Assembly: GCA_001787005.1 (NCBI GenBank)
Contig: MFUV01000005.1
Location: forward strand, 2,764-66,763
From: Candidatus Nomurabacteria bacterium RIFCSPLOWO2_01_FULL_39_18
GTDB taxonomy: Bacteria > Patescibacteriota > Minisyncoccia > Phycocordibacterales > UBA9973
Direction: 5' to 3'
DNA: 64,000 bases
How positions within the stretch are numbered: position 1 is the stretch's first letter; each line of letters begins with the position of its first letter. Both the position numbers and the translations under genes were made by a program. This document shows, piece by piece, positions 39,508-56,360 of the stretch. Below the pieces are notes generated by a model. That model ran no database searches. It saw only the letters and a list, made by a program, of their open reading frames with translations, and was not told the origin of the DNA.

Positions 39508-40581
39508 CTACAAAAGCTTACTTTGTTTTTCTTTCACCTTAACCCCCAGATGTTCGTACGCCTTCTTGGTAGCCACCCGGCCGCGAGCAGTGCGCTCGAG
39601 GAGTCCAAGCTGGATTAAATATGGCTCTATTACTTCTTCCACTGTCGCTTCTTCCTCAGACATCGCTGCTCCGATAGTTTTCAATCCCACCGGTCCGCCA
39701 CCGAATTTCTTAATTAATATTTCCAGAAATTTTCTATCAGAAGGATCTAAGCCGAGTTCATCAATCGCCAGCATGGCAAGGGCACTTTTCGTTGTTTCTT
39801 TACTTATGGTTTTTTTGCCTGCCCCGTAGGAAGCAAGATTCCCTTCGGGGTGAACTTGAGCAAAGTCTCGGACTCGTTTTAAGAAATAGTTAGCCGTGCG
39901 GGGAGTGAACCTGCTTCGTTTAGCTATCTCTTCCAGAGCGCCACTGTCTAATTTTGCCTTAAGTAATTTACTAGATCTTTCTATTATTTTTTCAATCTCT
40001 TTATTTGAGTAAAATTCCAGCCTGAAAACTCCACCAGAGAATCTTGATCGTAGCGGTGAAGAAATCAAAGCTACTCGGGTGGTAGCCGCTATCAAGGTGA
40101 AAGGGGGGAGATCTAATTGAATTGTTCTGGCAGATGGTCCCTTGCCGAGGATGATATCTAGAACTCCAGACTCCATGGCAGGGTAGAGTATTTCTTCAAC
40201 CATTTTATTGAGTCGATGGATTTCATCAATGAAAAGGATATCGCCCGGGGATAAATTTGTAAGAATGGAAGCCAAGTCACCCACTTTCACGATTGCTGGT
40301 CCGGAAGTGATTTTTATTTGTCGGTTGGTTTCCTTGGCAATCAGATGAGCCAAGGTGGTTTTACCTAGACCTGGGGGACCATAGAAAAGAATGTGTTCTG
40401 GTATATGTCCGCGCTCTTTGGCAGCTTGTAAAAGAATTTTGACGTTATCCTTTATGTGTTTTTGGCCTATATACTCATCAAAACGCGTAGGACGCAAGGT
40501 CTGGTCCAAAAAAGAATCTTCAGATTTACTTGCCCCGCCCTGGCTTCTGGCGCTTGTTTCTTTGGTTATTTTGCTTGACAT
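39508..40581 (-). CDS. ruvB: Holliday junction branch-migration helicase RuvB
   Basis: ILFYGPPGLGKTTLAHLIA and DILFIDEIHRL. Carries a 30-nt GC-rich palindromic insert at 39821-39850, translated as PEGNLASYGAGKK. Confidence 0.95.
   Translation of the reverse strand: MSSKITKETSARSQGGASKSEDSFLDQTLRPTRFDEYIGQKHIKDNVKILLQAAKERGHIPEHILFYGPPGLGKTTLAHLIAKETNRQIKITSGPAIVKVGDLASILTNLSPGDILFIDEIHRLNKMVEEILYPAMESGVLDIILGKGPSARTIQLDLPPFTLIAATTRVALISSPLRSRFSGGVFRLEFYSNKEIEKIIERSSKLLKAKLDSGALEEIAKRSRFTPRTANYFLKRVRDFAQVHPEGNLASYGAGKKTISKETTKSALAMLAIDELGLDPSDRKFLEILIKKFGGGPVGLKTIGAAMSEEEATVEEVIEPYLIQLGLLERTARGRVATKKAYEHLGVKVKEKQSKLL
39821..39850. repeat. CCCCGTAGGAAGC...TTCCcTTCGGGG palindromic element inside ruvB
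   Basis: Imperfect palindrome. Same family as 53858-53889 (uvrA), 56331-56360 (intergenic), and the degenerate copies at 2877-2908 and 35497-35527. Confidence 0.6.
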
Positions 40582-40866
40582 TGATTTAATAATATGTTAT
40601 ACTACTTGTATGGTACATTTATCAACAGGGTATCAACAAGGCTATCAACATTATAGCATTTGTCGCTCTTCCCATATAGTAAAATGTATTTAGGAAGTTA
40701 TTTGATGAAAGAAGGCATTAATCTCTAAGCAATCAGCCACCGGTTATACGAGTTTGCATAGGACGTTCTGGTACTTTTATTAGTTCTCTGGCGCTATCCT
40801 ATAATAATTTGTTACTCTTCTAGCACAGCTAGGAAAGGATTGTTTAGAGATTAATGCTTTTTCTTT

Positions 40867-40980
40867 GTGAGGAATAAAATATGAAAGTTTTAGAGCACGG
40901 ATATTTTTTTGCTAAAAAATTCCTCGTGCTCGCACCGTCGTGCTCCCAAGTCTCTAAAACTTTCATATTTTATTCCTCAC
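40867..40980. mobile_element. MITE-like element with 29-bp perfect terminal inverted repeats (GTGAGGAATAAAATATGAAAGTTTTAGAG)
   Basis: Left arm 40867-40895 and right arm 40952-40980 are exact reverse complements. A 56-nt GC-richer core has its own inverted repeats. The right arm encodes the last three codons (SEE) and the stop of pilB. Confidence 0.5.
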
Positions 40981-42691
40981 TTAGATCCACCACACTTCGC
41001 ACTTCTTCGAGTGAAGTAATTCCATTTAATACTTTTACCAAACCATCCTGGCGCATTGAAAGTATCCCTTGATTGCGCGCCACTCTCTTGATTTCATGTT
41101 CACTCGGATTTTCAGGCATTATTTTCTCAACCGCTTCATTGGTTATAATCGCCTCAAAAATTCCTATTCTTCCATTGTAACCAGTTTTATTACATTTCTC
41201 ACAGCCGACTGGAGCGAAAAATTTAACAGGCGCGTCTGGGTTTATATTATAGCTTGTGAGGCTTTTGCCCTCATCTTTGATGCTATCCATCACTAGTTTT
41301 ACAGTTTTCGATTCCTCTTCAGTCGGCGTATATTCTTTCCTACAAAATGTGCAAAGAATACGCACCAAGCGCTGAGCCATGGAAAGGGACAGCGCTGAGA
41401 CCAAAATTTTTGGGTTCACTCCAAGGTCAATAAGACGCGGGATGACACCGGCGGCGTTGTTGGTGTGAAGTGTTGAGAAAACCATGTGGCCGGTCAAAGA
41501 CGACTGCACTGCGATTTCCGCTGTATCCCCGTCACGGATTTCTCCAACCATTATTACGTCTGGATCTTGCCGGAGTGCCGAGCGTAGTCCTTCAGGGAAA
41601 GTATAGCCTCTTTTCAGATTTATTTGGGTTTGAGTTATGCCAACTAAATGATACTCCACCGGATCTTCAATGGTGATTATATTTATTTCCGGTGAATAAA
41701 TTTTTCGCAAAAATGCGTAGAGAGTCGTAGTTTTACCAGAGCCCGTTGGACCCGTGACCAGAATCAAGCCGTTTGGTTTTTTGATTTGATCTTGGACGAT
41801 TTTAAAAAGGTATGGTTCAATTCCTAATTTTTCAAATTCCACCTGGATGGATTTCGGATCCAATATACGCATAACAATTGCTTCACCGTATGCACCGGGG
41901 ATTAAGGAAACACGGATATTTATTTCCTCATCTTTTTCCATAATATTGAAGCGCCCATCTTGGGCTACTTTTGAAGTTAACTTCATTCCCGAGAGGAGTT
42001 TAATGCGAGAATTAAGTAAGCGATACACATCAGATCCAAAAAAGTTTATATCCTGAAGCACCCCATCAAGCCGCAACCGCAGTCTGCTCCTGTCTTTCTC
42101 TGGTTCTATGTGCACGTCAGAAGCGCGAATCGCTATTGCTCCAGCTAAAATTATTTCGAGCAGACGAGAAATTCTATGAGTTTTATTCGCTTCCAAAGTT
42201 TCTACTACTAATTTTTCAATATCTTGGATGTGATGTATGTTCTTCGCCGTATTTGTTAAAATTTCTCCGGAAATATCTAAACCCCCGATTCTAGAACTTT
42301 CAGCCATTGAAAGCTCCTTATATCTTTCCCAGACCTTGTTTAGACTTGCGCTAGATGTCATATAGAAAGTCGGATTCAGATTTTTTCTTTCCATATCTTC
42401 TTTTAGTTTTTTAAAAAGATCCTCTGAAGGCGCGCGGACAGCTATATAGACGTTATCTCCGAACAGTTTAAAAGGTGCGACTTTCATCGCGATGGCGTCA
42501 GCCTCCGGAATCGCTCTCAAGGCTTCATTATCCACACCAATACGATGGAGATCAATATAGGGGAGACCGTATTTTGATTCGGCCAAAGTTGCTACTAGTT
42601 GCTCTTCCTCTTGTTTATGCAATTCTTCTAGTTGCCTATTTTGTTTTTCCTCATTAAAATCCTTTGCCACACATAAAGTATACCCCCACAC
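40970..42691 (-). CDS. pilB: Type IV pilus / type II secretion assembly ATPase (PilB/GspE family)
   Basis: N-terminal GspE-N domain. Walker A LVTGPTGSGKTTTLYA. Asp box. C-terminal tetra-Cys CTFCRKEY...CEKCNKTGYNGRIGIFE. The true start is probably the internal GTG (..AKDFNEE), because the track start lies inside the 23-bp palindrome. Confidence 0.85.
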   Translation of the reverse strand: MWGYTLCVAKDFNEEKQNRQLEELHKQEEEQLVATLAESKYGLPYIDLHRIGVDNEALRAIPEADAIAMKVAPFKLFGDNVYIAVRAPSEDLFKKLKEDMERKNLNPTFYMTSSASLNKVWERYKELSMAESSRIGGLDISGEILTNTAKNIHHIQDIEKLVVETLEANKTHRISRLLEIILAGAIAIRASDVHIEPEKDRSRLRLRLDGVLQDINFFGSDVYRLLNSRIKLLSGMKLTSKVAQDGRFNIMEKDEEINIRVSLIPGAYGEAIVMRILDPKSIQVEFEKLGIEPYLFKIVQDQIKKPNGLILVTGPTGSGKTTTLYAFLRKIYSPEINIITIEDPVEYHLVGITQTQINLKRGYTFPEGLRSALRQDPDVIMVGEIRDGDTAEIAVQSSLTGHMVFSTLHTNNAAGVIPRLIDLGVNPKILVSALSLSMAQRLVRILCTFCRKEYTPTEEESKTVKLVMDSIKDEGKSLTSYNINPDAPVKFFAPVGCEKCNKTGYNGRIGIFEAIITNEAVEKIMPENPSEHEIKRVARNQGILSMRQDGLVKVLNGITSLEEVRSVVDLSEE

Positions 42692-42725
42692 TTATTTTAT
42701 TCAAAATAAGTGTGGGGGTATACTT
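42676..42725. promoter_or_regulatory. Perfect palindrome with 23-bp arms and a 4-nt loop in the divergent pilB/polA promoter region
   Basis: aagtatacccccacacttatttt-attc-aaaataagtgtgggggtatactt. Immediately followed by TATAAT (42732-42737) and the polA ATG at 42745. Confidence 0.5.
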
Positions 42726-42744
42726 AAGTGGTATAATTTTCACA

Positions 42745-45135
42745 ATGAATAAAGACAAGAAAACACTGGTCCTGCTCGATGCTCACGCTATCATACATCG
42801 TGCTTATCATGCCTTGCCAGAGTTCTTGTCGTCGAAGGGCGAGCCCACTGGGGCGCTCTATGGACTCTCTACCATGCTGATGAAGATAATTGCTGATCTA
42901 AAACCCGATTACATCGTGGCTTGCTATGATTTACCGGACAAAACTTTTAGGCATGAAGCATATGATGGCTATAAAGCAGGCAGGGCGAAAACAGATGATG
43001 CGCTCATTTTGCAATTAAAAAACTCTCATCAGATTTTCGAAGCATTTAATATACCCCTCTATAATGCGCCAGGATTTGAAGCGGATGATGTGCTGGGGAC
43101 GATAGTAGAGAGATTCAAGGGGGACAAAGATCTGAACATCATCATTGCTTCTGGCGATATGGACACGATGCAGTTAGTCGATGATAAAAAAGTGCAGGTT
43201 TATACTTTGAAGAAAGGCATCAATGATACAATTTTATATGATGAAGAAAAGGTGGTGGAGAGATTTGGTTTTAAGCCCAAATTTTTGCCGGACTACAAGG
43301 GGCTACGTGGCGACCCATCGGATAACATCAAAGGCATTAAGGGAATCGGAGAAAAAACAGCGCAGACCCTGATAGTAAACTTCGGCACGATTGAAGAGAT
43401 TTATAAAAAAATAAAAAAAGATGAAAAATCTTTCACCATAGCCGGGGTTAGTCCTCGAATGATCGAGTTGGTAAAAAATAACGAAGAAGAAGCTTTATTT
43501 TCGAAAACTCTGGCGACAATCCGGACTAATGTGCCGATAGATTTTAAAATACCGGGAAAAACTTTTTGGGACAACGCTGATCTAAAAAAGATTGAACAAG
43601 TTTTCATATTATTTGAATTTCGTTCTTTATTTGCGCGTTTGAAAAGCTTTTTTAGAAAAAGTGGGAACGAAAACAGCTCTAACCAGCTTCTTTTTGTCGA
43701 AGAAAATAAGACGAACGAGAAAGATGTAGATCCGATTAAACTTCAAGAAGCTTCTATCGCGCTTTGGCTTATCAACTCGGATATCTCAAATCCAAGCTTA
43801 GAAGATATTTTACAATTTGCCAATACGGATGATTTTATTGTGGCATATGAGTATATTTTAAAAGAGCTAAAGGAGAAAAAACTAGATTTAGTATTCTCCG
43901 AAATAGAGAAACCCATTATGCACACAGTAAAAGAGATGGAAGACTACGGGATTCTGATAGATAAAAAATATTTTAAAAAATTATCTGATGAATATCATAG
44001 AGAATTAGATATATTGACGAAAAAAATTTACAAAATGGCTGGCATGGAATTTAATATAAATTCACCGAAACAATTAGGCGAAATTCTTTTCGATAAATTG
44101 GGCATGAAGTCAAGCAAAAAGAAAAACGCAAGTGGATCTTTCTCCACTAAGGTTTCTATTTTGGAAGAATTAGAAGATGAAAATGAGATCATAAAAGAGA
44201 TACTAGCCTATCGCGAACTCCAGAAATTGCTTTCTACTTACATTGATGTAATACCCAAGATGGTGGGGGAGGATGGCCGTCTACATGCGAAATTTCTGCA
44301 AAATGGGGCGACGACGGGTAGATTCTCTTCACAAGATCCAAATTTACAGAATCTGCCGATAAAAACTGAACTAGGCAGAAGGATCAGAAGCGGATTTGTA
44401 GCGACGCCTGGGCACAAACTTTGCGCTTTCGATTACAGTCAGATAGAGCTGCGGGTGGTGGCAATGCTCTCGGGAGATAAAAAGATGACGCAAATATTCC
44501 GTGAGGGGAAGGATATTCACGCGGGCGTAGCGTCTTTTGTATTCGGAGTACCTATTGAGAAGGTTGATAGTGAAATGCGCCGCAAAGCAAAAATAATAAA
44601 TTTTGGCATTATTTATGGCATGGGGATTTCTGCCCTGAAGAAGAACCTCAAAGGCACGCGCGAAGAAGCGCAAAAATTTCATAATAATTATTTTAATCAA
44701 TTCTCCGGCGTACGAGATTATTTAGAAGAGGTGAAAGCTTTCGCCCTTAAAAATCTCCACACTGAAACCCTATTCGGTCGGCGTCGATATTTCCCTAATA
44801 TAAATTCCAGAATCCCATTTTTGAAAAATATAGCAGAACGTACAGCTACCAATGCTCCGATTCAGGGCACAGCCACGGCTGACATCATTAAGCTTGCCAT
44901 TCGATATGCCGATGAAGATTTAGAGGCGGCAGGAATAAAAGATCGAGTTCATCTCATTCTCCAGATACACGATGAACTGGTATATGAAATACATGAAAGC
45001 GCGACAGAAAAAGCTTCCAAGATAATAAAAAAAGCGATGGAAGGGGTGCTGGAACGTTCATATCTTCATTTTAAAACAGACATCCCGCTAGTTGTTCATT
45101 CTAGTTCAGGGAATAATTTCGGAGAGGTGAAATAA
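42745..45135 (+). CDS. polA: DNA polymerase I (5'-3' exonuclease + polymerase domains)
   Basis: 5'-nuclease motifs in the N-terminal 250 aa. Polymerase motifs DYSQIELR, RRKAKIINFGIIYGM and QIHDELVYE. The start is taken as the MNKDKK Met; the track ORF begins upstream inside the palindrome. Confidence 0.9.
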   Translation: MNKDKKTLVLLDAHAIIHRAYHALPEFLSSKGEPTGALYGLSTMLMKIIADLKPDYIVACYDLPDKTFRHEAYDGYKAGRAKTDDALILQLKNSHQIFEAFNIPLYNAPGFEADDVLGTIVERFKGDKDLNIIIASGDMDTMQLVDDKKVQVYTLKKGINDTILYDEEKVVERFGFKPKFLPDYKGLRGDPSDNIKGIKGIGEKTAQTLIVNFGTIEEIYKKIKKDEKSFTIAGVSPRMIELVKNNEEEALFSKTLATIRTNVPIDFKIPGKTFWDNADLKKIEQVFILFEFRSLFARLKSFFRKSGNENSSNQLLFVEENKTNEKDVDPIKLQEASIALWLINSDISNPSLEDILQFANTDDFIVAYEYILKELKEKKLDLVFSEIEKPIMHTVKEMEDYGILIDKKYFKKLSDEYHRELDILTKKIYKMAGMEFNINSPKQLGEILFDKLGMKSSKKKNASGSFSTKVSILEELEDENEIIKEILAYRELQKLLSTYIDVIPKMVGEDGRLHAKFLQNGATTGRFSSQDPNLQNLPIKTELGRRIRSGFVATPGHKLCAFDYSQIELRVVAMLSGDKKMTQIFREGKDIHAGVASFVFGVPIEKVDSEMRRKAKIINFGIIYGMGISALKKNLKGTREEAQKFHNNYFNQFSGVRDYLEEVKAFALKNLHTETLFGRRRYFPNINSRIPFLKNIAERTATNAPIQGTATADIIKLAIRYADEDLEAAGIKDRVHLILQIHDELVYEIHESATEKASKIIKKAMEGVLERSYLHFKTDIPLVVHSSSGNNFGEVK

Positions 45136-45159
45136 ATATTTTTATAATATAATAAAGAA

Positions 45160-45549
45160 ATGGAAAAAGAAAATAAAAAACATGGCGTGTTATTAACAGT
45201 GTGGGTAGTTCTGATAATAATCATTAATGTTATTATCAGCGCAGGTTGGTTGTGGGAATCAATACATCCATATACGCCAGAGTCTACATCACTTTGGCTA
45301 ATATATGTTTATGTAATATCAGGATTCGTCAATGTTGTGTTTATAGTATTTTTATTCAGGTGGAAAAAATGGGCATTTTTTGCTTATTTTGGGAGTGTGG
45401 TTGTTGTTTTTATCTTGAATGTGATTAGTGGAAGGATAGAACTCATTAGTCTTCCATTTAGTCTTCCGTACGCGCTAGTTGGACCAGCCGTTCTTTATTG
45501 GATACTTCATTCCAAGACATTTTATTCTAAGTGGGACTTACTTGAATAA
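45160..45549 (+). CDS. Small integral membrane protein, hypothetical
   Basis: 129 aa with four predicted TM helices. Confidence 0.45.
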   Translation: MEKENKKHGVLLTVWVVLIIIINVIISAGWLWESIHPYTPESTSLWLIYVYVISGFVNVVFIVFLFRWKKWAFFAYFGSVVVVFILNVISGRIELISLPFSLPYALVGPAVLYWILHSKTFYSKWDLLE

Positions 45550-45575
45550 TTTTGGATAGGTAAAGTAACCAATAA

Positions 45576-46318
45576 GAGCTTTAGACTCTCACTGCGAGTT
45601 ATGATATAGTAAGATACATGCGGAAGGAACCACTAATAACGGGAGAGTATTACCATATTTATAATAGAGGCGTAGATAAGCGAGATATTTTTAATAATCT
45701 GAAAGATCTCGAGCGTTTTAAAGAAAGCATAAAACAATTTAATCAAATTGAAGGCATTGGTAGTTTAGAAATGTACAATAAATCAATAAGAGCTTTAGGC
45801 TCTCACCCCGACAGTTATCTGAAATTAAAATCAGAACCACTTGTGGCTATCATTGCTTTTTGTATCAACCCCAATCATTTTCATTTTCTTATTAAACAAC
45901 TTGTCGACGGCGGGATAGCTAAATTTTTTCAAAAACTTCAGGGTGGGTATACTTATTATTTTAATCAAAAAAACCAGAGATCGGGGGCACTACTTCAGGG
46001 GACTTTTAAATCTAAATTAATTAAAAATGATGATTATTTCAGAAAAACATTTGCATATGTAAATCAAAATTATTCTGTTCACAATATTCCTAAAAGCAAA
46101 CTTCCTTTTATTTTTGCAAGTGACACGGAATATGAAAGCGAGCTTTTTAATTTAGTGTCAAAGTCTGAAGGACAAAAGATGCTAGACATTTTTGAAGGTA
46201 AGAATAATCTTAAAAAACATTGTAAAGAAATTATATCAATTATTCGAGAAGAACGGGGGAAAACTTCCCTAGAAGAACCGGATGAATTATTTCAGTGAGA
46301 GTCTAAAGCTCTCACTGG
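45576..46318. mobile_element. IS200/IS605-type (RAYT-like) unit: Y1 HUH transposase gene flanked by 20-bp perfect inverted repeats
   Basis: Left AGAGCTTTAGACTCTCACTG (45576-45595) and right CAGTGAGAGTCTAAAGCTCT (46294-46313) are exact reverse complements. The right flank itself forms a 9-bp-stem hairpin. Confidence 0.6.
45618..46298 (+). CDS. IS200-like / REP-associated tyrosine transposase (HUH Y1 family)
   Basis: YHIYNRGVDKRDIF..ERF, HuH motif NPNHFHFLIK, and YFNQKNQRSGALLQGTFKSKLIKNDDYFRKTFAYVNQN (catalytic Tyr region). These align closely with IS200 TnpA blocks. Confidence 0.8.
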   Translation: MRKEPLITGEYYHIYNRGVDKRDIFNNLKDLERFKESIKQFNQIEGIGSLEMYNKSIRALGSHPDSYLKLKSEPLVAIIAFCINPNHFHFLIKQLVDGGIAKFFQKLQGGYTYYFNQKNQRSGALLQGTFKSKLIKNDDYFRKTFAYVNQNYSVHNIPKSKLPFIFASDTEYESELFNLVSKSEGQKMLDIFEGKNNLKKHCKEIISIIREERGKTSLEEPDELFQ

Positions 46319-46340
46319 GTGATCTTAAAGTTCTTGGGAG

Positions 46341-46835
46341 ATGTTTTTGTGGTACAATACGAAAATGGAAGTAGAAAATAAGAATCTCAATAAACACAAC
46401 ATACACAAGGTTCTGGCACATTCATACACAGCTTATTTCATCTTACTTTTAATAGGTGTTTATTTAGATTTTGTTTTCCAATTTAAAATTTTCCAAGACC
46501 CCGTAATGATACCCGTGGGCTTCCTTTTTTTAGTGTTTGCTACTGTCGTAATAATCTGGGCGCAAAAGACTGGGCGTGATTTAAGAAAAGTTGAGGAAGT
46601 AAAAACAGAGCATTTTTGCCGAGGACCATATTGTTATACCAGAACTCCGACACATTGGGGGCTCTTCTTCTTAGTATTAGGATTTGGGATTATCGCCAAT
46701 GCTCTATTCGTTATTTTATCTACGATTGTTTCTTTTATTATTTCTAAATTCATTTTTATAAAAAAACACGATGAAATTCTTGTAGAAAAATACGGGGATG
46801 CTTATTCAGAATATAAAAAGCTAGTTAAATTCTAA
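46341..46835 (+). CDS. Isoprenylcysteine carboxyl methyltransferase (ICMT/PEMT)-family membrane protein
   Basis: Four TM helices and the motif CRGPYCYTRTPTHWGLFFLVLG, resembling the ICMT signature G.Y..VRHP.Y.G. Confidence 0.55.
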   Translation: MFLWYNTKMEVENKNLNKHNIHKVLAHSYTAYFILLLIGVYLDFVFQFKIFQDPVMIPVGFLFLVFATVVIIWAQKTGRDLRKVEEVKTEHFCRGPYCYTRTPTHWGLFFLVLGFGIIANALFVILSTIVSFIISKFIFIKKHDEILVEKYGDAYSEYKKLVKF

Positions 46836-46911
46836 AATACTTGTCCCGTACTAAATTTTTGATTATGACACATGACCATTATTAATAAAAACTTAAAATT
46901 TTAGTACCGGG

Positions 46912-47607
46912 ATGATTTATCTTTTTTCTGGCGATGATGTGAAGAATAAACACCTCTCTTACGAGAAGTTTATAAAATCCCTGCCTGCGCAGGCAGGTAT
47001 TCCAGCGAATACTGAAACCTTTTTTATAAACAGAAATGATTTTAATAGGAATCAGATAGAAAGTCTTTATTCTGGGTCAGGTCTTTTTTTCGAAGATTGC
47101 GTAGTGGTATTCCAAGATGTTTTCGAGAGAGAAGAAACTCGAGAATTTGTTTTAGAGAAGTTGGATTTAATGGGCAAATCTTCCAGCTCTTTTGTTTTTC
47201 TAGAAGGTAAATTAAATAAACCGATTCTAGATGCTTTCAAGAAAATCGAGCCAAAAAAACTCCAGATTAATATTTTCGAATTACCGAAAGAAAAAAAGGA
47301 GAAATTCAATAATTTTCTTCTAGCCAATGCTTTTGGAGTTAGAGATAAATTAAATCTTTGGATTTATTTCCGGCAAGCTGTCGACCTCGGGGTGGGGATG
47401 GAGGAGTTGATCGGAGTACTTTTCTGGAAAATCAAGGATATGCTAATAAAAAAAGATTTCCGCAAATTCTCCGAAGCAGAACTTAAAAATTCCGCCTCTC
47501 GCCTCTCCTACCTTTTACCAGAAGCCCGCAAGGCTAGTCGTGACGCCGAAGCAGTCTTTGAGCAGTTTTTGCTTGAAGCTTTTTTAAAGAGTACTATAAT
47601 TAAGTAG
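46912..47607 (+). CDS. Hypothetical protein, possibly a short DNA polymerase III delta-subunit-like (HolA-like) protein
   Basis: N-terminus MIYLFSGDDVKNKHL resembles HolA starts. Contains the in-frame 18-nt palindrome CCTGCCTGCGCAGGCAGG (LPAQAG) at 46980-46997. The ATG abuts an inverted-repeat right arm. Confidence 0.35.
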   Translation: MIYLFSGDDVKNKHLSYEKFIKSLPAQAGIPANTETFFINRNDFNRNQIESLYSGSGLFFEDCVVVFQDVFEREETREFVLEKLDLMGKSSSSFVFLEGKLNKPILDAFKKIEPKKLQINIFELPKEKKEKFNNFLLANAFGVRDKLNLWIYFRQAVDLGVGMEELIGVLFWKIKDMLIKKDFRKFSEAELKNSASRLSYLLPEARKASRDAEAVFEQFLLEAFLKSTIIK

Positions 47608-47632
47608 TCGGTATCGGGGGGTGTAAAAATCA

Positions 47633-48239: not shown

Positions 48240-48248
48240 TCAGAACTG

Positions 48249-48578: not shown

Positions 48579-48585
48579 AAATTTT

Positions 48586-48628
48586 TCTGCTCTACCTCTG
48601 CCAGCTGGCGGATGAGCTACGGGCGCAT
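48586..48628 (-). repeat. Partial duplicate of the tRNA-Lys 5' end (nt 1-14 and 18-28), with a 17-nt palindromic insert in the D-loop position
   Basis: gatgagctacgggcgcat and tctgctctacc match the tRNA. They are interrupted by tctgccagctggcggat, which is related to the 18-bp palindrome at 1623-1640. The copy lies 7 nt upstream of the GIY-YIG ATG. Confidence 0.5.
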
Positions 48629-48829
48629 CTTGTGATAGTATAAGAAATAAGGCTAAAAATCAAGAAAAATGGTAATATATTAGTATGTTTAAGATCAGCA
48701 AAACGTTGTTGTGCTTTCTAATTTTAACGATAGTAAGTTCTTTGTTTGCTTACACTATTATAGTAAAAGCATACGAAAATGCATATCCCGACTATTTAAT
48801 CCAATAAATTTTCGTGTTAAGGTGTAACT

Positions 48830-51112
48830 ATGACTCAAGGTATTTTCAAGTTGCATAGCCCATTTAAACCAGCTGGCGATCAGCCTGTGGCTATTTTAAA
48901 GCTCCTTGATGGATTAGAGAAGGGCATGCAAAAACAAACTCTGCTCGGGGCAACTGGCACAGGCAAGACTTTTACCATGGCAAATGTGATAGTAGAATAC
49001 AATAAGCCGACATTGGTAATAGCGCACAACAAAACCCTTGCGGCTCAACTAGCTCAGGAATTCAGAGAATTTTTCCCAGATTCCGCGGTGCACTATTTTG
49101 TTTCCTACTATGATTATTACCAACCAGAAGCTTATATGCCGACAACGGACACTTATATAGAAAAGGATGCGCAGATAAACAAAGAAATAGATCGTCTTCG
49201 TCATGCTTCAACCCAAGCGCTTTTGACTAGACGAGATGTTATCATTGTCGCTTCCGTGTCTTGTATTTATGGTTTAGGTTCTCCAGAAGAATATGAAAAA
49301 GTTAATTTAAAAATTAAACTTGGTATGAAAATGGAGAGGCTGACTCTGATGAAACGTCTGATTGAAATTCATTTCGAACGCACAAATGCTGATCTTACCC
49401 CAGGGACTTTCCGATCTATCGGCTCTTGGGTAGAATTTATGCCAGTGTCAGAGACAATAATGTACCAGATTGAAATAGATGATGGGGCTGTCTCAAAAAT
49501 AACCAAAATTGATCCAATTTCTTCTCAGATAATAAAAGAAGAGAAAGATGTTTTTATTTTTCCGGCCAAGCATTTCATCACAGAAGATACGAAAAAGAAC
49601 AAAGCCCTGATTGAAATTAAGAAAGAACTCGCATTGCAATTAAAAAAGTTTCAGAAAGAAGGCAAGTTGCTTGAGGCAGAGCGGATAAAGCGCCGGACCA
49701 ATTACGATCTCGCCATGATCAAGGAAGTTGGTTATTGCAGTGGCATCGAAAATTATTCGCGACATTTATCAGGTAAACAAAAAGGCGAACCGCCAGAAAC
49801 CTTGCTCTCTTATTTCCCCCATACTGGAGATGGCGAACCTGATTTTCTTACCATCATTGATGAATCCCACGTAACTCTGCCTCAACTAGAAGGTATGTAT
49901 GCGGGCGATGCTTCACGCAAAAAAACCCTTGTAGAATATGGTTTTCGCCTGCCTTCAGCTAAGGATAACCGGCCTCTTAAATATGAGGAATTTCAGAAGC
50001 GCATCGGTCCAGTAGTTTATACCAGTGCGACGCCCGGAAAATACGAAATAGAAGAAAGTAAAAAAGAATGTGAACAAACTTGCCCCGCACGAAGTACTCT
50101 TTCGTGCGGGGTCGTAGAGCAAATAATCCGACCAACCGGGCTTGTCGATCCAGAGACAATAGTTCGACCAGTGAGTGCAAATTCTCCTCTTGAGGAGTAC
50201 CCGAAGGGGGAGGTGGATGAATTTTCCACCCCGTCTCGCAAGCGATCCACTCCTCAAGAGGGGAATAAATACCCCGGCCAGATTCAAGATTTTATAAGTG
50301 AAGCAGAGAAAACAATTAAAAAGGGTTTTCGAGTTCTAGCCACCACACTAACAAAAAAAATGGCCGAAGATCTGTCTCTTTATCTCAAAGACCTGCCTGC
50401 GCAGGCAGGCAAGAAAATAAAATCAGAGTATCTGCATAGTGATATAAAAACTTTGGAAAGAATCCAAATACTTTCAAAGTTTCGCAAAGGTGATTTTGAT
50501 GTTTTGGTGGGAGTAAACTTGCTTCGCGAAGGGCTTGATTTGCCCGAAGTGGCGTTAATTGGGATTCTCGATGCAGACAAAGAGGGATTTTTGCGCTCAG
50601 AAACATCTCTTATCCAAACCATCGGGCGTGCCGCGCGCAACAGTGAAGGGAAGGTAATTCTCTATGCAGATGTTATCACTGGCTCGATGAATAAAGCGCT
50701 AGCCGAAACTGCTCGTCGTCGGGATATTCAGCTCACCTATAATAAAAAGCACGGCATCACCCCCAAGACGATAATAAAAAAGATAAAAGATATTACCGAA
50801 GAATTCGAAAGTGAACATGGAAAAGCTGTAAATGCAGAATTAAAACTTGATGTGGAAATATTCCGTAGAGCTTACAAAAAAGAACTGACTAGACCACTTA
50901 AACCAAAAGGTTTAGGCGAATCGCATCTCTCTGATCAAGAAATAGAGGCATTAACCTATGAGAAAATAATAAAAATAAAAGAAAAAGAAATGAATCGAGC
51001 CGTGAAAGAGCTGGATTTCGAAACAGCGGCCATACTTCGTGATGAAATTAGAGTTTTGTCTCAAAAAACTGTTTACGGTACCGGCAATAAAACAAAAAAT
51101 GTAGTTCCTTGA
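48830..51112 (+). CDS. uvrB: Excinuclease ABC subunit B
   Basis: Walker A GATGTGKTFT, beta-hairpin region, helicase motifs, and a C-terminal UvrB/UvrC interaction domain (EIEALTYEKIIKIKEKEMNRAVKELDFETAAILRDEI). At 760 aa it carries about 90 aa of GC-rich in-frame inserts (50082-50116, 50176-50281, 50392-50409). Confidence 0.95.
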   Translation: MTQGIFKLHSPFKPAGDQPVAILKLLDGLEKGMQKQTLLGATGTGKTFTMANVIVEYNKPTLVIAHNKTLAAQLAQEFREFFPDSAVHYFVSYYDYYQPEAYMPTTDTYIEKDAQINKEIDRLRHASTQALLTRRDVIIVASVSCIYGLGSPEEYEKVNLKIKLGMKMERLTLMKRLIEIHFERTNADLTPGTFRSIGSWVEFMPVSETIMYQIEIDDGAVSKITKIDPISSQIIKEEKDVFIFPAKHFITEDTKKNKALIEIKKELALQLKKFQKEGKLLEAERIKRRTNYDLAMIKEVGYCSGIENYSRHLSGKQKGEPPETLLSYFPHTGDGEPDFLTIIDESHVTLPQLEGMYAGDASRKKTLVEYGFRLPSAKDNRPLKYEEFQKRIGPVVYTSATPGKYEIEESKKECEQTCPARSTLSCGVVEQIIRPTGLVDPETIVRPVSANSPLEEYPKGEVDEFSTPSRKRSTPQEGNKYPGQIQDFISEAEKTIKKGFRVLATTLTKKMAEDLSLYLKDLPAQAGKKIKSEYLHSDIKTLERIQILSKFRKGDFDVLVGVNLLREGLDLPEVALIGILDADKEGFLRSETSLIQTIGRAARNSEGKVILYADVITGSMNKALAETARRRDIQLTYNKKHGITPKTIIKKIKDITEEFESEHGKAVNAELKLDVEIFRRAYKKELTRPLKPKGLGESHLSDQEIEALTYEKIIKIKEKEMNRAVKELDFETAAILRDEIRVLSQKTVYGTGNKTKNVVP
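50082..50116. repeat. Perfect 11-bp-stem GC hairpin (ccccgcacgaa-gtactct-ttcgtgcgggg) inside uvrB
   Basis: Translated as TCPARSTLSCGV, between conserved blocks where other UvrB proteins have no such segment. Confidence 0.55.
50176..50281. repeat. About 105-nt GC-rich element with inverted terminal repeats inside uvrB
   Basis: tcctcttgaggagt (50177-50190) and actcctcaagaggg (50264-50277) are inverted copies of each other. The element encodes NSPLEEYPKGEVDEFSTPSRKRSTPQEGNKYP between the conserved IVRP and GQIQD.. blocks. Confidence 0.55.
50392..50409. repeat. 18-nt self-complementary element CCTGCCTGCGCAGGCAGG inside uvrB (LPAQAG)
   Basis: Identical 18-mer at 46980-46997 in an unrelated gene, where it also reads LPAQAG. 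Degenerate copy at 55495-55512 in uvrC (LPTQAS). Confidence 0.6.
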
Positions 51113-51798
51113 TTTTCCTTTGACTCAAACCATATCTTGCCCTGGTGTTGCTCGATGATATTTTTACTTACGTATAGTCCCAAACCAGTTCCATCAGCAT
51201 GATGATGCAACGCGCGAGACGATCTGAAAAATTTTGTAAATATTTTCCCGAATTCTTCCTTAGGGATGCCAATACCCATATCCTTGATTGAAATAACGAG
51301 CTCATGGTCATTACAAGCGACTTCCAGCTCCACCCTGTCTCCCGAGGAAGAATATTTGATAGCATTATCAAAAATATTATTTATAGCCATCTCCATTTTT
51401 TCTATATCTACATTAAGCGGAGGTAGGTCAGGGGGGATTTCAAACTTAAAAACAACCTTCTTTTCATCTCCAATATTTTTAAATGAATCCTTAAGATTTT
51501 TAAATACTGGCAAAATGGATTGTTTCTTCAAAATAACTCCGAAAGATCCCTCCGCAATCTGGCCTACATTCAGAAGATCATTCACCAAGCTGAGCATGTG
51601 GCTCGTGGCTACAGAGGCTTTAGATATAATTTGCTTCTGATCAGGGTTCAATTTACCCGCTTCTCCGGAAGAAAGAATTTCCAAAGACCATTTCAATCCA
51701 ATTAATGGGGTTCTTAACTGATGGGCGGCAATAGTGACAAATTCGGCATTTGGCAAGATTTTTCTTACTTTTTTATGAGATTTTGCCTGTTTCATCAA
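51073..51798 (-). CDS. Cytoplasmic sensor histidine kinase (HisKA + HATPase_c, no TM region)
   Basis: H-box AAHQLRTPL; N-box IFDNAIKYS; G-boxes DMGIGIPKEEFGKIF and GTGLGLYVSKNII. Overlaps the uvrB 3' end by 40 nt on the opposite strand. Confidence 0.85.
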   Translation of the reverse strand: MMKQAKSHKKVRKILPNAEFVTIAAHQLRTPLIGLKWSLEILSSGEAGKLNPDQKQIISKASVATSHMLSLVNDLLNVGQIAEGSFGVILKKQSILPVFKNLKDSFKNIGDEKKVVFKFEIPPDLPPLNVDIEKMEMAINNIFDNAIKYSSSGDRVELEVACNDHELVISIKDMGIGIPKEEFGKIFTKFFRSSRALHHHADGTGLGLYVSKNIIEQHQGKIWFESKENQGTTFFVLLPVP

Positions 51799-51904
51799 TA
51801 TTTGTAATTTTACTAAAATTTGCCAAATAAGTCCAAAATGTATTCACATTTGTGTTCATTGTATATTTGCGCATTTCCCCCACAAATGATATAATTCTAC
51901 CGTT

Positions 51905-52327
51905 ATGGCATCTGACGACAAACAAAAAACTATTGATGGACTTTCCAAGAAAAGAGTGTTGTTAGTTGAAGATGATGTTTTTCTAAGCGACATTATTGCC
52001 CGCAAACTTGTTGCTCAAGGCTGCGTTTTCCTCTACGCGCAAGATGGTGAGAAAGCGCTGCTCCTAGTGGAGAGAGAAGTACCAGATATTATTTTACTCG
52101 ACATTCTTCTTCCTGGCATTAATGGTTTTGATCTGCTTAAAAAATTCAAAGAAAATCCAAAGACTAAAGATATCCCAGTCATCATTCTTTCCAATTTAAG
52201 CCAGCCTAGTGATATAGAGAAAGGCAAAAGCCTAAAAGCTGCCCGTTTCTTAATAAAAGCTACCACCTCGACCGATGGAATAATGTTGAAACTAAAAGAA
52301 GTCCTGGAAGAGAAGAAAAAATCCTAA
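51905..52327 (+). CDS. Single-domain response regulator (CheY-like receiver)
   Basis: VLLVEDDVFL, phospho-acceptor Asp in IILLDILLPG, and the conserved Lys region. 140 aa. Divergent from the histidine kinase. Confidence 0.85.
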   Translation: MASDDKQKTIDGLSKKRVLLVEDDVFLSDIIARKLVAQGCVFLYAQDGEKALLLVEREVPDIILLDILLPGINGFDLLKKFKENPKTKDIPVIILSNLSQPSDIEKGKSLKAARFLIKATTSTDGIMLKLKEVLEEKKKS

Positions 52328-52406
52328 AAAGAAGACTTTTGTATTTTTTCTGCTATACTAAATTTATATACACCCCCTATGAATAAAGTGGGGTGCGGTT
52401 GTATTT

Positions 52407-54977
52407 ATGGCAAAACAAGAAAAAGAATCAAATAAAATAATAATAAAAGGGGCGCGAACACACAACCTTAAGAATATTACGGTTGAAATACCACGAGATA
52501 AGATGACAGTCATTACCGGAGTTTCTGGAAGTGGCAAATCTTCTCTCGCCTTCGATACAATTTTTGCCGAAGGGCAGAGGCGATACGTAGAGTCGTTGTC
52601 TTCTTATGCCCGGCAATTTCTGAATCAAATGCCCAAGCCGGACGTGGATGAAATCACGGGGCTTTCACCCGCTATTTCCATTGACCAAAAATCCCGATCG
52701 AACAATCCTCGCTCCACCGTAGCGACCATTACAGAAATTTATGATTATCTCCGGGTAATGTACGCGCGTATTGGGCACCCGCACTGCCCGGAATGCGGAG
52801 AAGAGATAAAGAAACTTTCTAATGAAGAAATTTTGAATTTTATTCAAAATAAAATCAAAACTCATTCTTCTGTTTCTATTTTTTCTCCAGTCGTTAGAGG
52901 GAGAAAAGGAGAATATTACCAGTTATTGTACGACTTGCTGGGCAAAGGTTTTTCCGAGATTCGGCTGGATGGAACGATGAAAAAGCTTCGGGAGCAAATC
53001 ACCCTCTCAAAATACAAAGCTCACAACATCGAGGTCTTGGTGGATGGTTTTTCGATTGATGGATTAAAAAAAGAAGAATTGCGCATGCGCTTGTCTGAAG
53101 CGATCGAGCGAGCTCTGATTGAATCTGACGGACTAGTCACAACTAAAATTAATGATGAAGAATTTATTATGTCTGCAAAATTTGCCTGCAAAAATGACGG
53201 CTTTTCTTTTCCAGAGATTGAGCCTCGTTTATTTTCTTTTAATTCTCCCTATGGCGCATGCCCAGCTTGTAATGGCCTTGGTTCGAAGTATTTTATGGGA
53301 GACGAACCCTGTGATGTTTGTCATGGTGCGCGCCTTCGCACCGAAGCCCTAAATGTTTTTTTGGAAACTAAAAATAAAAAAGTTAATATTTTAGATCTCG
53401 CTTCTCTCTCCATTGCCGATGCGCATGATTTTTTCAAGAACCTTAAGCTCTCAAGCCAAGAGAAAGAAATATCCATGCCAGTAGTGAGGGAGATAGAAGC
53501 GCGGCTACAATTCATGCTCGACGTTGGGCTCAACTACCTTCAGCTTTCTCGTAAAGCCAATACTCTCTCCGGCGGAGAGGCTCAGCGCATTCGCCTGGCT
53601 TCACAGCTCGGCTCCAGGCTTGTGGGAGCTCTCTATGTGCTCGATGAGCCGACGATAGGGCTTCATCAACGAGACAATGACCGTTTAATCAGAACATTGC
53701 AGAATCTGCGCGATCTAGGCAATACGATTTTAATTGTTGAACACGATGAAGACACTATTTATGCATCAGATTATATCGTAGATATTGGACCGAAGGCTGG
53801 GGTGCATGGCGGGGAAATTATTGTTTCTGGTTTTCTCGAGGATTTATTGACTGCTAACCCCGAACGAAAGCCTACGGCTTCATACGGGGCAGGGAAAAAC
53901 ACGAAGTCCAGAACACTTGGCTATTTAAGAGGTGAGTTAAAAATAGAAATTCCCAAGAAGCGTCGCGGCGGTAAAGGCGCGCTTCGCATCAGCGGGGGAA
54001 AAATTTTTAATATAAATAATTTGAATGTAGAAATTCCGCTTGGCGTCATGACCTCTATCACCGGTGTGTCCGGGAGCGGTAAAAGTTCCTTAATGTATGA
54101 AATTCTTTACAAGAATTTACAGGCGAGGTATGAACGCAAATATCGTACTGCTAAAGTTTACAATTGCTCTTCTTTTTCTGGTACTGAATACCTATCTCGA
54201 GCGATTTTAATTGACCAATCACCCATTGGTCGAACTCCGCGTTCTAATTTGGCAACTTATACGGGCGCTTTTACTCATATTCGAGACCTTTTTGCCACCA
54301 CCGAAGAGGCTCGTCTGCGTGGCTGGAAGGCAAACCGCTTTTCTTTCAACGTCAAAGGCGGCCGCTGTGAAGCTTGTGAAGGCAACGGCGAGATCGCTGT
54401 GGAAATGCACTTTTTGCCGACAGTTTACGTGACTTGCGATGTATGCAACGGCAAAAGATTTGATAAAGAAACACTTACTGTAAAATATAAGAAAAAAAAT
54501 ATTTATGAAGTGCTCCACATGACGGTCGAAGTTGGACTCTCATTCTTCAAGGACATTCCTGCGATTTCTGATCGACTGGAAACTCTGATGGATGTGGGAC
54601 TAGGGTATCTAGAGCTTGGTCAGTCGGCCACCACACTCTCTGGCGGGGAAGCGCAACGGGTAAAAATATCGAGTGAGCTATATCGTCCGCATGCAGATAT
54701 GACCATCTATCTTCTTGATGAACCTACTGTGGGGTTGCACTATGATGATGTGCATAAACTATTGGAAGTGTTAAATAAACTTGTAAGTAAAGGCAACACC
54801 GTCATTCTAATAGAGCACAATCTGGACATTATAAAGAGTTCAGACTACATAATAGATATTGGGCCAGAAGGGGGAATGAATGGGGGTAATTTAGTGGCGA
54901 AGGGCACACCAGAAGAAGTGGCGAATAATACAAAAAGCTACACTGGGAAATATTTAAAGAGGGCTTTACGCAAATGA
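52407..54977 (+). CDS. uvrA: Excinuclease ABC subunit A
   Basis: Two ABC modules ([15 protein letters not shown] and [15 protein letters not shown]), LSGGEAQR x2, and zinc-finger Cys clusters. Carries a 32-nt palindromic insert at 53858-53889 translated as [13 protein letters not shown]. Confidence 0.95.
53858..53889. repeat. CCCCGAACGAAAGC..GCTTCATACGGGG palindromic element inside uvrA, same family as the ruvB insert
   Basis: Its reverse complement, ccccgtatgaagc...ttcgttcgggg, matches the CCCCGTAGGAAGC/TTCCTTCGGGG termini. Both intragenic copies read ASYGAGK in the host frame. Confidence 0.6.
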
Positions 54978-56260
54978 AAATTGAATTAATAAAAAAAATA
55001 CCTGATAAATCTGGAGTCTACTTTTTCAAAAAAGGTAAAGAAATTCTTTACATTGGCAAAGCAACATCACTGAAAGATAGAATAAAAAGTTATTTTGGCA
55101 AGGACTTGATACAAACTAGGGGGCCACTTCTGGTGGATATGATCGTTCGTGCAAATAAAATAGATTGGCAAGAGACAGACAATGTTCTGGAGGCTATAAT
55201 TCTCGAAGCCAACTTGATTAGAAAGCACCAACCCTATTACAACACCAAAGAAAAAGACGACAAAAGTTTCAACTTCGTTTGTATCACAAGAGAAAAGTTG
55301 CCTAGAGTAATTACTGTGCGGGGGAGTAGTGTTAAACACCGAGTGTTTAACAAAATCTACGGACCATATACGAGTGGCGTACATCTTCGTGAAGCGCTCA
55401 AGATAATCAGGAAGATTTTTCCATTTTTAGATGATAAAAGTAAAAATTATATTGAATTTTATCGACAAATAAATTTAATTCCTGACCTAAATGACCTACC
55501 GACGCAGGCAAGTCGTAAACTATATTTGCAAAATATCAAAAATATCAAATTGTTTTTGGGTGGCAAGAAAAAACAAATTTTCAAAAACTTGAAAAAAGAA
55601 ATGCATGAATACGCGAAGAAGCATGAATTTGAAAAAGCCGGAGAAATTAAAAGACAGCTTTTTGCTCTACAACACATCAATGACATTGCTTTATTAAAGG
55701 CTAATAGCTTCGCAGACAGTAAAATTTTTGATCCTGCGCCCTTCTTTGGGCGCAGGATAGGGAACAAAGCGGAACCCTCGGATACAAAAATTTCATTGTC
55801 TGCTTCGCCGATTCGCATTGAGGCCTACGACATAGCTCACATGGGTGGCAAAAATATGGTAGGAGTGATGATAGTAGTTGAAGAAGGTGAACTGGTGAAA
55901 AGTGAGTATAAAAAATTCAGGATAAAAACTCAAGCTGGAGCAAATGATACTGGTGCGCTTGCGGAGATTCTAGAGAGGCGTTTGGCGCACAGAGAATGGG
56001 CATATCCTGATTTAATCGTAGTTGATGGCGGAATAGCCCAAATAAATATGGCTAAAAAAAATTTATCAAGGATTCACCTTGATATTCCCGCAGTGTCGGT
56101 TGTAAAAGACGAAAGACACAAGCCAAAAAGCATTATGGGTGAGAGAGAAATTGTGGCAAAATATAAAAGGGAGATCTTGCTTGCGAACAGCGAAGCGCAT
56201 AGATTTGCCATCGCATACCACAAAAAAATGCGTAATAAAAATTTCCTTAAAATTTATTGA
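54974..56260 (+). CDS. uvrC: Excinuclease ABC subunit C (short form lacking the C-terminal HhH region)
   Basis: N-terminal GIY-YIG (SGVYFFKKGKEILYIGKATSLKDR), UvrBC-binding region (EKAGEIKRQLFALQHI), and an RNase H-like endonuclease domain. 428 aa. Start overlaps the uvrA stop (ATGA). Confidence 0.9.
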   Translation: MKIELIKKIPDKSGVYFFKKGKEILYIGKATSLKDRIKSYFGKDLIQTRGPLLVDMIVRANKIDWQETDNVLEAIILEANLIRKHQPYYNTKEKDDKSFNFVCITREKLPRVITVRGSSVKHRVFNKIYGPYTSGVHLREALKIIRKIFPFLDDKSKNYIEFYRQINLIPDLNDLPTQASRKLYLQNIKNIKLFLGGKKKQIFKNLKKEMHEYAKKHEFEKAGEIKRQLFALQHINDIALLKANSFADSKIFDPAPFFGRRIGNKAEPSDTKISLSASPIRIEAYDIAHMGGKNMVGVMIVVEEGELVKSEYKKFRIKTQAGANDTGALAEILERRLAHREWAYPDLIVVDGGIAQINMAKKNLSRIHLDIPAVSVVKDERHKPKSIMGEREIVAKYKREILLANSEAHRFAIAYHKKMRNKNFLKIY

Positions 56261-56330
56261 TTTAAACTGCAAAAGGCATACTATATAAAAATGAAGTTCG
56301 AAACAAGAATCTGCCAGAACCCCGAAGGAA

Positions 56331-56360
56331 AGTAAAGCTTCCTACGGGGCAGGTTGCAAA
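56331..56360. repeat. Intergenic copy of the CCCCGTAGGAAGC...TTCCTTCGGGG palindromic element (reverse orientation)
   Basis: ccccgaaggaaagtaaagcttcctacgggg. Sits 7 nt upstream of the ATG of the Cys-rich paralog B. Confidence 0.55.

Follow-up and report, generated by a model that had tools for sequence, protein, structure and literature searches.

The stretch analyzed here comprises 64,000 nucleotides of Candidatus Nomurabacteria bacterium RIFCSPLOWO2_01_FULL_39_18 (contig MFUV01000005.1, positions 2,764 to 66,763; hereafter, the window) and has a GC content of ∼39%. It carries the DNA repair genes ruvB, uvrB, and uvrA together with scattered copies of a short GC-rich palindromic element. In total, five clear copies and one partial copy of the element were identified (Table 1). 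Three of them lie within the repair genes, and outside these genes, the remaining copies are all located upstream of genes. By name, the nearest homologues of RuvB and UvrA belong to Candidatus Nomurabacteria, Paceibacterota, or Parcubacteria, and an identical RuvB protein is also present on groundwater contigs of the Joint Genome Institute (JGI) and the European Nucleotide Archive (ENA). A scan of the window with Rfam 15 returned only two tRNAs at the gathering threshold and no family for the element, and nothing relevant was found around the intergenic copy C at E ≤ 10.

Table 1. Copies of the palindromic element, their host genes, and a transposase gene in the window. ORF, open reading frame; REP, repetitive extragenic palindromic sequence; RAYT, REP-associated tyrosine transposase.
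Feature	Position	Strand	Description
Copy A	39818-39850	-	33 nt, phase 2 inside ruvB; encodes PEGNLASYGAG; 49.9 bits (covariance model)
Copy B	53858-53893	+	36 nt, phase 2 inside uvrA; 43.9 bits (covariance model)
Copy C	56320-56353	+	34 nt, intergenic (uvrC / ORF 56367-58121); 53.4 bits
Copy D	2878-2912	-	35 nt, diverged; 22.4 bits, E 1e-4
Copy E	50079-50111	-	33 nt, antisense inside uvrB (+); 21.2 bits, E 3e-4
Partial copy F	35496-35526	-	8.9 bits, E 1.6, weak; fold z -1.3
ruvB	39508-40581	-	host of copy A
uvrA	52407-54977	+	host of copy B
uvrB	48830-51112	+	host of copy E and of two palindromic inserts from other families
RAYT-like Y1 (HUH) transposase gene	45618-46298	+	226 aa; Pfam Y1_Tnp 3e-7

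A sequence-only reading of the window had proposed that one repeat family is present in ruvB, in uvrA, and between genes, and the coordinates, shuffle statistics, and a covariance model confirm this. The 13-mer CCCCGTAKGAAGC has three exact matches in the window and five with up to two mismatches, compared with 1.0 expected; none of 100 shuffles reached five. The pattern CCCCG-N10-40-CGGGG matches four times against 0.33 expected. The covariance model was seeded with 33-nt copies from other genomes plus copies A and C, and it detected copies A, B, and C with 44 to 53 bits (E values of 1e-11 to 1e-13). The scores of A and C are partly by construction because both are in the seed, whereas copy B lies outside the seed alignment.

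All window copies fold as hairpins. Copy A is read in frame and sense to ruvB, where it is translated as HPEGNLASYGAGKKT, and translation verified that copy B has the same orientation and phase relative to its gene, as had been proposed. The proposed terminus TTC(C/G)TTCGGGG does not fit copy A, which ends in TCCCTTCGGGG. Copy B belongs to a sub-family with a C.A mismatch at pair 8 that is present in at least 10 loci. The intergenic copy had been placed at 56331-56360, 7 nt before a start codon; it exists, but at the position of copy C, with its 3′ end 13 nt before the ATG at 56367, and this position is kept in the orthologous loci L048, L078, L082, L089, and L061. Of two suggested degenerate relatives, one stands as copy D, which lies upstream of a LysM/M23-like gene (1678-2823, minus strand), keeps its stem via different base pairs, and has a DNA fold of -9.6 kcal/mol (z -3.7). 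The other, copy F, is only partial and consists of the 3′ half TTCCTACGGGACAGG (14/15 nt kept) joined to a local AT-rich hairpin without the 5′ CCCCG arm, 23 nt upstream of the start of a penicillin-binding protein gene (32953-35472, minus strand). A hairpin in uvrB had been called related, and it is, as an antisense member of the family (copy E), since it matches the model on the minus strand. Copy E is a perfected 11-bp palindrome (fold z -5.9) with the tail CAAG and the translation ...TCPARSTLSCG..., in which C6-G24 and C8-G22 stand in place of A.A and G-C. Minus-strand copies lie left of 50.1 kb and plus-strand copies right of 53.8 kb, an arrangement compatible with chance.

The sense strand of the element reads CCCCGAA, followed by a loop and GCTTCMTACGGGGCAGG (the 3′ part is also given as TACGGGGCAGG). 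The consensus, CCCCG-A-AGG-A-(variable stem-loop)-CCT-A-CGGGG-CAGG, spans 33 to 42 nt and has a constant outer frame composed of CCCCG/CGGGG, an A.A mismatch, AGG/CCT, a bulged A, and the unpaired tail CAGG. The inner stem-loop varies by sub-family with compensatory changes (e.g., AAG-CAAG-CTT, GTCGC-TTC-GCGAC, TCCCG-ACAAGG-CGGGA, and GAAC-AAG-GTTC), and 33-mers are identical between unrelated genes. Across 115 model-aligned copies, 98.4% of the pair cells are paired and 6 of the 11 pairs are changed on both sides; 0/500 shuffles reached the observed values, and slid controls also fell far short. The alignment was fitted to the model and the outer motif was preset by the search pattern; therefore, the informative covariation comes mainly from the inner pairs and the diverged extra copies. 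The covariation indicates that the two arms pair within one strand. Likenesses to 16S rRNA helix 14 (CCTACGGG), to signal recognition particle RNA, and to domain V of group II introns were weighed but dismissed, since they are partial and miss the defining features.

To place the family taxonomically, contigs from one genome per species were scanned with a pattern needing both element ends. At least 120 loci were found, nearly all from Patescibacteria (the Candidate Phyla Radiation [CPR]) by record title. The classes among the matches listed include Nomura-, Kaiser-, Wolfe-, Giovannoni-, Brenner-, Gribaldo-, Zambryski-, Nealson-, Yanofsky-, Falkow-, Sungii-, and Tagabacteria and CPR3, along with many metagenome-assembled genomes labelled Saccharibacteria. 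A few low-GC contigs labelled Omnitrophota, Elusimicrobia, or Gammaproteobacteria hold genuine-looking copies and may be mis-binned, and a handful of GC-rich non-CPR matches without a hairpin resemble chance matches (L009, L036, L037, L041, L068, L118, and L006). Carriage by phages is not supported, as the sole IMG/VR match likewise has no hairpin and is a chance match in GC-rich sequence. Outside the sites used as seeds, ruvB-seeded loci yielded 6 copies in 435 kb and census loci 14 extra copies in 688 kb, or ∼1 copy per 50 kb; against this background, the five clear copies of the 64-kb window make it comparatively rich. Nearly all copies are singletons. The one clear inverted doublet lies within tgt of L058 (1753-1873), where two inverted copies 52 nt apart are both translated, as in a REPIN-like doublet, and the antisense copy has a compensatory ACC/GGT instead of AGG/CCT.

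The copies in ruvB and uvrA are absent from solved structures and from many orthologues, two comparisons that the sequence-only reading had suggested. Alignment of RuvB to PDB 1ixs opens a gap of 10 residues precisely at HPEGNLASYG, where the AAA-lid domain meets the winged-helix domain; relative to 9gxk, UvrA shows a gap of 14 residues at the copy B insert; and UvrB has three gaps relative to 2fdc, one of which is the antisense copy E. An AlphaFold2 model of RuvB has low confidence (mean predicted local distance difference test [pLDDT] of 52) and renders the insert as coil (pLDDT <50), which adds little beyond the PDB alignment. Among the best 120 RuvB homologues (∼80 to 88% identical; 3 unclassifiable), 117 were classified, of which 30 have an intact-looking PEG..YGAG insert, 35 have an altered insert, and 52 are empty (AQVH-KKSLDQ) or have an unrelated K/N-rich loop. 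At the UvrA site, 86/115 close homologues are empty (LLTAKKNTNNSRTL), 17 are intact, and ∼12 are altered or remnant.

The insertion can be read at the DNA level. Over 78 ruvB loci, empty sites read GTN CAY AAA AAA and filled sites read GTN CA(CCCCGAAGG...CAGG)Y AAA AAA, an exact 33-nt insertion. In uvrA, the empty protein site LLTAKKNT corresponds to the filled site LLTAN(PEG..GAG)KNT, with the element placed inside the A-run of Lys-Lys codons. No target-site duplication was found between empty and filled ruvB and uvrA sites. The flanks of 113 copies have A at -1 in 66% and C/T at +1 in 85% and are A-rich from +2, which indicates a target of roughly A^YAAA. A remnant among the UvrA homologues, TAPEGKNTKSR, would fit slippage between the element's two AGGA repeats. 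At the same ruvB site, L140 carries a different palindrome, CCTGCCAGCGCAGGC, so the ruvB loop is evidently permissive.

The ruvB and uvrA insertions are old and common to other species, not recent in this genome. The idea that the inserts are an ancestral feature of RuvB or UvrA holds only as inheritance within a sub-clade; relative to sister lineages, the insert is derived. A neighbor-joining tree of RuvB was too star-like to be used for counting gains. Two RuvB proteins that are 99.7% identical (P0016 and P0032) have different inner stems. Re-insertion was rejected as the cause because in the equivalent pair L207/L208, synonymous DNA differences are clustered beside the element, which makes allelic recombination the best explanation. 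Directly downstream of ruvB, L207 carries an RVT_1 reverse transcriptase and bAvd (1287-2661), the hallmark pair of a diversity-generating retroelement (DGR); L208, whose ruvB is 97% identical to that of L207, has ruvC at that place instead (6056-6547).

The coding context of the element was tabulated over the census matches listed, the pattern-fitting window copies, and the extra covariance-model matches by using a simple ORF map. Among the matches counted, long ORFs contain 77 copies in sense and 8 in antisense orientation (two of the latter being the chance matches L068 and L118), and 50 copies are intergenic. Three sense phases are used, namely PEG..YGAG (48 copies), PKES..PTGQ (24), and PRRK..LRGR (5). 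Thus, the frame shared by the ruvB and uvrA copies is correct for those two, but as a rule, it is only the commonest of three. The length is a multiple of 3 in 71/77 coding copies versus 30/50 intergenic copies (Fisher p = 2e-5). None of the three sense frames contains a stop, and all are very hydrophilic (grand average of hydropathy [GRAVY], -1.3 to -1.7); of the antisense frames, one has a stop and the others have GRAVY values of -0.6 and +0.7. The multiple-of-3 excess and the open frames indicate ordinary translation of the element, with predicted peptides such as PEGKQASYGAGK. These results bear out the earlier proposal of selection for frame-preserving, hydrophilic inserts, and the structures, orthologues, and 33-nt insertion bear out its premise that unrelated genes gained members of the family separately and kept them where frame and hydrophilicity allowed.

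Where the host gene is opposed to the local majority strand, the element follows the gene in 8 cases and the majority in 2. Transcription or translation rather than replication direction therefore sets the bias, and a replication-strand cause is not supported in these separable cases. Intergenic copies between co-directional genes show a weak orientation bias (17 to 8, p = 0.11), which argues for peptide-level filtering more than RNA function. On the sense strand of window genes, the A-rich target motif is 2 to 3 times commoner. The 74 host ORFs match 123 Pfam families; RuvB, SMC/RecN-type ATPases, UvrA, UvrC, PolA, DnaX, and DnaJ recur as hosts, and the copies sit in linkers or loops of housekeeping proteins, a notable part of which act in DNA repair and replication. 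Among ∼110 listed census loci (≤8 kb each), uvrA is present in 8, ruvB in 6, uvrC in 5, and polA in 4, compared with ∼1 each expected, counts that are inflated by orthologous sites. At least three distinct insertion sites occur in uvrA. Origin-proximal clustering of the parS type is not supported; no census locus contains dnaA, and dnaN appears solely in those with ruvB.

A group of copies ends 13 to 16 nt before a start codon (window 56291-56410; L018, L022, L048, L078, L082, and L089). At these loci, the 5′ coding end of the gene is duplicated in tandem as a short, degenerate repeat; the element occupies the first duplicate, and the second, element-free duplicate supplies the real start. The flanks of copy C reconstitute a duplicate of the CQNCK segment of the downstream gene, 15/15 nt are shared across the junction in L082 (p = 0.002), and MSKDYYKN precedes the dnaJ start MAKDYYNI in L018. 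Most start-proximal copies are 34 nt long and would break the frame.

Nucleotide conservation was examined in eight ruvB orthologues whose selection rested on protein similarity alone. At codons with an invariant amino acid, the diversity of the third position is 0.036 in the element versus 0.561 in 99 flanking codons (permutation p < 1e-5), and the frozen codons are GC-ending, which is unusual for this AT-rich genome. The base right after CAGG is as variable as the flanks and thus marks the 3′ boundary of the element. Four host genes with GKD-PEGK copies, selected via an exact nucleotide pattern, share third bases in 8/8 amino-acid-invariant element codons. The synonymous freezing at ruvB indicates that retained copies are constrained at the nucleotide level, unlike a passive relic. 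Strong nucleotide conservation suggests either co-option of the hairpin, for which E. coli REPs are a precedent, or its maintenance by recognition or conversion.

Very probably, then, the copies are inserted members of one palindromic element family. With less assurance, we favor a fuller explanation that joins insertion, selection filtering, and hairpin-dependent single-strand mobilization. On this view, the copies are very small non-autonomous palindromic elements of Patescibacteria, akin to REPs and to Rickettsia palindromic elements (RPEs), that insert into an A-rich site (∼A^YAAA), typically an A-run coding for Lys-Lys, without target duplication and with arms that pair within one strand. 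The copies observed have come through selection and, within genes, are almost always sense, multiple-of-3, and open in strongly hydrophilic frames, in linkers or loops; older copies undergo decay, or slippage between their AGGA repeats trims them. Spread would occur on single-stranded DNA via a hairpin-recognizing trans-acting enzyme, most likely of the HUH/Y1 transposase type. Three traits recall HUH transposition on single strands, namely a hairpin that is imperfect and strand specific, a flank of biased sequence, and insertion without target duplication; on this analogy, an HUH step is possible, although less likely than not. The RAYT-like Y1 gene of the window, from which we infer a candidate trans-acting enzyme, has REP-associated tyrosine transposase as its best NCBIfam match (6e-7, below cutoff). 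Within 45570-46330, it is flanked by inverted 19-mers of an unrelated hairpin, GAGCTTTAGACTCTCACTG and CAGTGAGAGTCTAAAGCTC, with a third near-identical 19-mer within the gene itself (∼45787-45805).

Several observations weigh against this explanation. The element flanks 0/8 of the Y1 genes examined (that of the window and 7 Nomurabacteria homologues), each of which has other hairpins, and neither a transposase nor any other gene was found flanked by the element as a carried unit; the genes between inverted or direct copy pairs are all housekeeping genes with no transposase among them (transketolase, S2, cysteinyl-tRNA synthetase, Nramp, TGT, and DnaX). No two window copies are identical, so there is no sign of recent activity there, and a density of ∼1 per 50 kb outside seeded sites is low, unlike that of classical REPs. 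The 2-3 to 1 target asymmetry and the antisense stop cover only part of the ∼15:1 sense bias. A purely selfish, vertically inherited insert should drift, whereas synonymous sites at orthologous ruvB copies are nearly frozen, and even CPR classes that are very distant from one another have the same outer stem, mismatch, bulge, and tail.

The element resembles intragenic REPs in several respects. Intragenic REPs of the GTAG- and CGTC-tagged super-families are often found in uvrA/B/C, polA, and recBCD, RAYT genes can be flanked by unrelated repeats, and some REP families are without a transposase of their own (Di Nocera et al. 2013; PMC3733652). Like these, the element is a 20- to 40-nt imperfect palindrome with an unpaired tag at one end, forms sub-families with compensatory stem changes, and has intragenic copies that encode short peptides, many in uvrA, uvrB, uvrC, polA, and further genes of replication or repair; the absence of a dedicated transposase or the presence of a RAYT flanked by unrelated repeats also has its parallel in some REP families. 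It differs in its tag, which is CAGG (CCTG on the other strand) rather than GTAG or CGTC, with GTAG only within the stem on the antisense strand. Over half of its copies are intragenic, whereas REPs are mainly extragenic, and an extrapolated tens of copies per genome contrast with the often >100 of REPs and do not reach hundreds. In addition, the outer stem is the same across the whole superphylum, and synonymous sites are frozen. Inverted doublets (REPINs) are the replicating unit of the RAYT-mobilized system; for the element, one clear doublet, that of L058, stands beside a great majority of singletons. Where RAYT genes are single-copy and flanked by inverted copies of their own REP, none of the 8 Y1 genes examined is flanked by the element in this way, although a cognate gene may lie elsewhere.

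RPEs are palindromic inserts that lie in frame in housekeeping genes and are tolerated by the protein fold (PMC10969869). The element shares with them the character of palindromic, selfish-looking DNA that is in frame, translated, and fold-compatible in unrelated housekeeping genes of a small-genome bacterium. RPE-1, however, is ∼100 to 150 bp long with one conserved peptide in a single frame, and the element is 33 to 42 nt long, uses three frames, and belongs to another phylum. Single-strand transposition by Y1 HUH enzymes of the IS200/IS605 group is known from IS608 and ISDra2. As a working analogy, these systems share a strand-specific imperfect hairpin with conserved unpaired bases, insertion beside a short specific sequence, no target-site duplication, and a Y1 gene in the genome; in contrast to them, the element is a single hairpin without separate left and right ends, its copies do not enclose a transposase, and orientation follows genes, not the replication strand, in the informative cases.

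Among similar organellar hairpins are the GC clusters and byp elements of yeast mitochondria, the latter being bypassed by the ribosome. GC-rich palindromic clusters and hairpins occur in AT-rich organelle genomes, including inside protein-coding genes (PMC2800124, PMC6649704). The resemblance lies in short GC-rich hairpins scattered over an AT-rich reduced genome, some in coding sequence, whereas the organellar hairpins are unrelated in sequence and the element is apparently translated normally rather than bypassed. DDE-derived miniature inverted-repeat transposable elements differ in that the element has no target-site duplication at its ruvB and uvrA sites, and DNA uptake sequences differ in being double stranded and present at ∼1 per kb, compared with ∼1 per 50 kb for an element whose arms pair within one strand. 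No earlier description of the element in CPR was found in the searchable literature. The element is a previously undescribed relative of the Rickettsia and proteobacterial intragenic palindromic repeats.

A live but rather less likely alternative is that the hairpin is primarily a cis-acting element of the host, an RNA or single-stranded DNA structure recognized by a conserved CPR protein, that might serve, for example, in mRNA processing or stability, in translational pausing at domain boundaries, or in marking a set of housekeeping and repair genes. Purifying selection would then maintain it, with an insertional origin secondary. This is what frozen synonymous sites inside the element next to saturated flanks would suggest, along with the identical third bases in GKD-PEGK copies of four genes (from pattern-picked loci), the invariance of the outer stem, A.A mismatch, bulged A, and CAGG tail over many CPR classes, an orientation that follows transcription, copies conserved 13 to 16 nt upstream of start codons, and the over-representation of uvrA, uvrC, ruvB, and polA among the loci listed. 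However, most ruvB and uvrA orthologues have no element, many copies are altered or partly deleted, the host genes are very diverse, three frames plus some antisense copies are used, the intergenic orientation bias is weak, and no Rfam family matches. The same frozen sites, invariant hairpin features (mismatch, bulge, and tail), and conserved placement before starts also lead to the notion of a CPR-wide, sequence-specific hairpin signal in repair, replication, and housekeeping coding sequence that a conserved CPR protein would read on RNA or single-stranded DNA and that purifying selection would keep at the nucleotide level; to this, we give an equally low probability.

Spread via an RNA intermediate, a small structured RNA that would enter A-rich sites by SINE-like (short interspersed nuclear element) target-primed reverse transcription with one of the reverse transcriptases frequent in CPR, appears improbable. 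Insertion at oligo-A tracts with an A-rich 3′ flank would accord with it, but the A-run is already present at empty sites and is thus the target, not a tail. The sense-strand bias, the occurrence of tetraloop-like loops, and the DGR reverse transcriptase and bAvd next to ruvB in L207 also lean toward an RNA route, whereas the copies show neither target-site duplication nor a series of 5′ truncations, no reverse transcriptase was found associated with them, and allelic recombination explains the L207/L208 difference. Less credible still is an ancestral or convergently selected functional ASYGAGK loop with DNA similarity as a by-product. Although a same-site insert is inherited across the RuvB and UvrA proteins of many Nomurabacteria and Paceibacteria, the same DNA is found in intergenic regions, in antisense, and in three frames with unrelated peptides, the nucleotides rather than the amino acids are conserved, and the segment is absent from sister lineages and all solved structures. 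Chance or low complexity among GC-rich hairpins or terminators is almost certainly not the explanation; it would account for the few GC-rich non-CPR matches and one viral contig without a hairpin but not for the shuffle controls, the window E values down to 1e-13, or the covariation controls.

The window holds other repeats. PDB UvrB has no counterpart to two further in-frame palindromic inserts in uvrB, a nested hairpin of 77 nt at ∼50186-50262 (CCTCTTGAGGAGT...ACTCCTCAAGAGG; RNA minimum free energy, -39.6 kcal/mol; z -4.1) and a perfect palindrome of 18 nt at 50396-50413. The latter, CCTGCCTGCGCAGGCAGG, is read as LPAQAG and is found again in the same frame at 46984-47001 in ORF 46912-47607 and also in L028 and L126. 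The GC-rich hairpin CC(C/T)CCTTATCAAGG(G/A)GG at 11605-11629 and 19461-19487 lies inside two ORFs, the ksgA-like 10883-11851 and 18711-19697, and may represent a further intragenic palindrome family. An intergenic unit of ∼75 nt with the inverted-repeat ends TCCCGTACTAAATTTT ... AAAATTTTAGTACCGGGA is present at 23951-24060, 25058-25132, and 46838-46913. All three occurrences end at the start codon of the gene that follows, and the unit may be an operator, a leader, or another repeat family. The intergenic stretch that separates two minus-strand ORFs, 59378-60277 and 60374-60763, holds at positions 60289-60397 a tandem duplication of a 52- to 57-nt unit that is CGAAT/GCGAAT-rich and 83% identical. 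Two small ORFs adjoining ruvB (39003-39486; 73 and 86 aa) are a candidate antitoxin/toxin pair by their N-terminal sequences, and the UvrA of the window is without ∼115 residues of solved structures (9gxk ∼306-420), apparently a whole inserted domain.

CPR genomes are tiny and streamlined, and their mobile DNA is little known; the element, which lies mostly within essential genes and is conserved throughout the radiation, shows that repeats persist there. Many CPR proteins carry element-derived loops, which are sources of annotation and alignment artefacts and can also serve as lineage markers. The preference of REP-type sequences for uvrABC, polA, and recombination genes, a tendency that is unexplained, is extended by the element to a distant phylum. 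The pairs of empty and filled sites, together with the frozen synonymous sites, bear on how REP-like sequences move and on whether they are parasites or co-opted. If the hairpin were instead a CPR-wide signal, its insertional spread would be a way of distributing a regulatory or processing mark.

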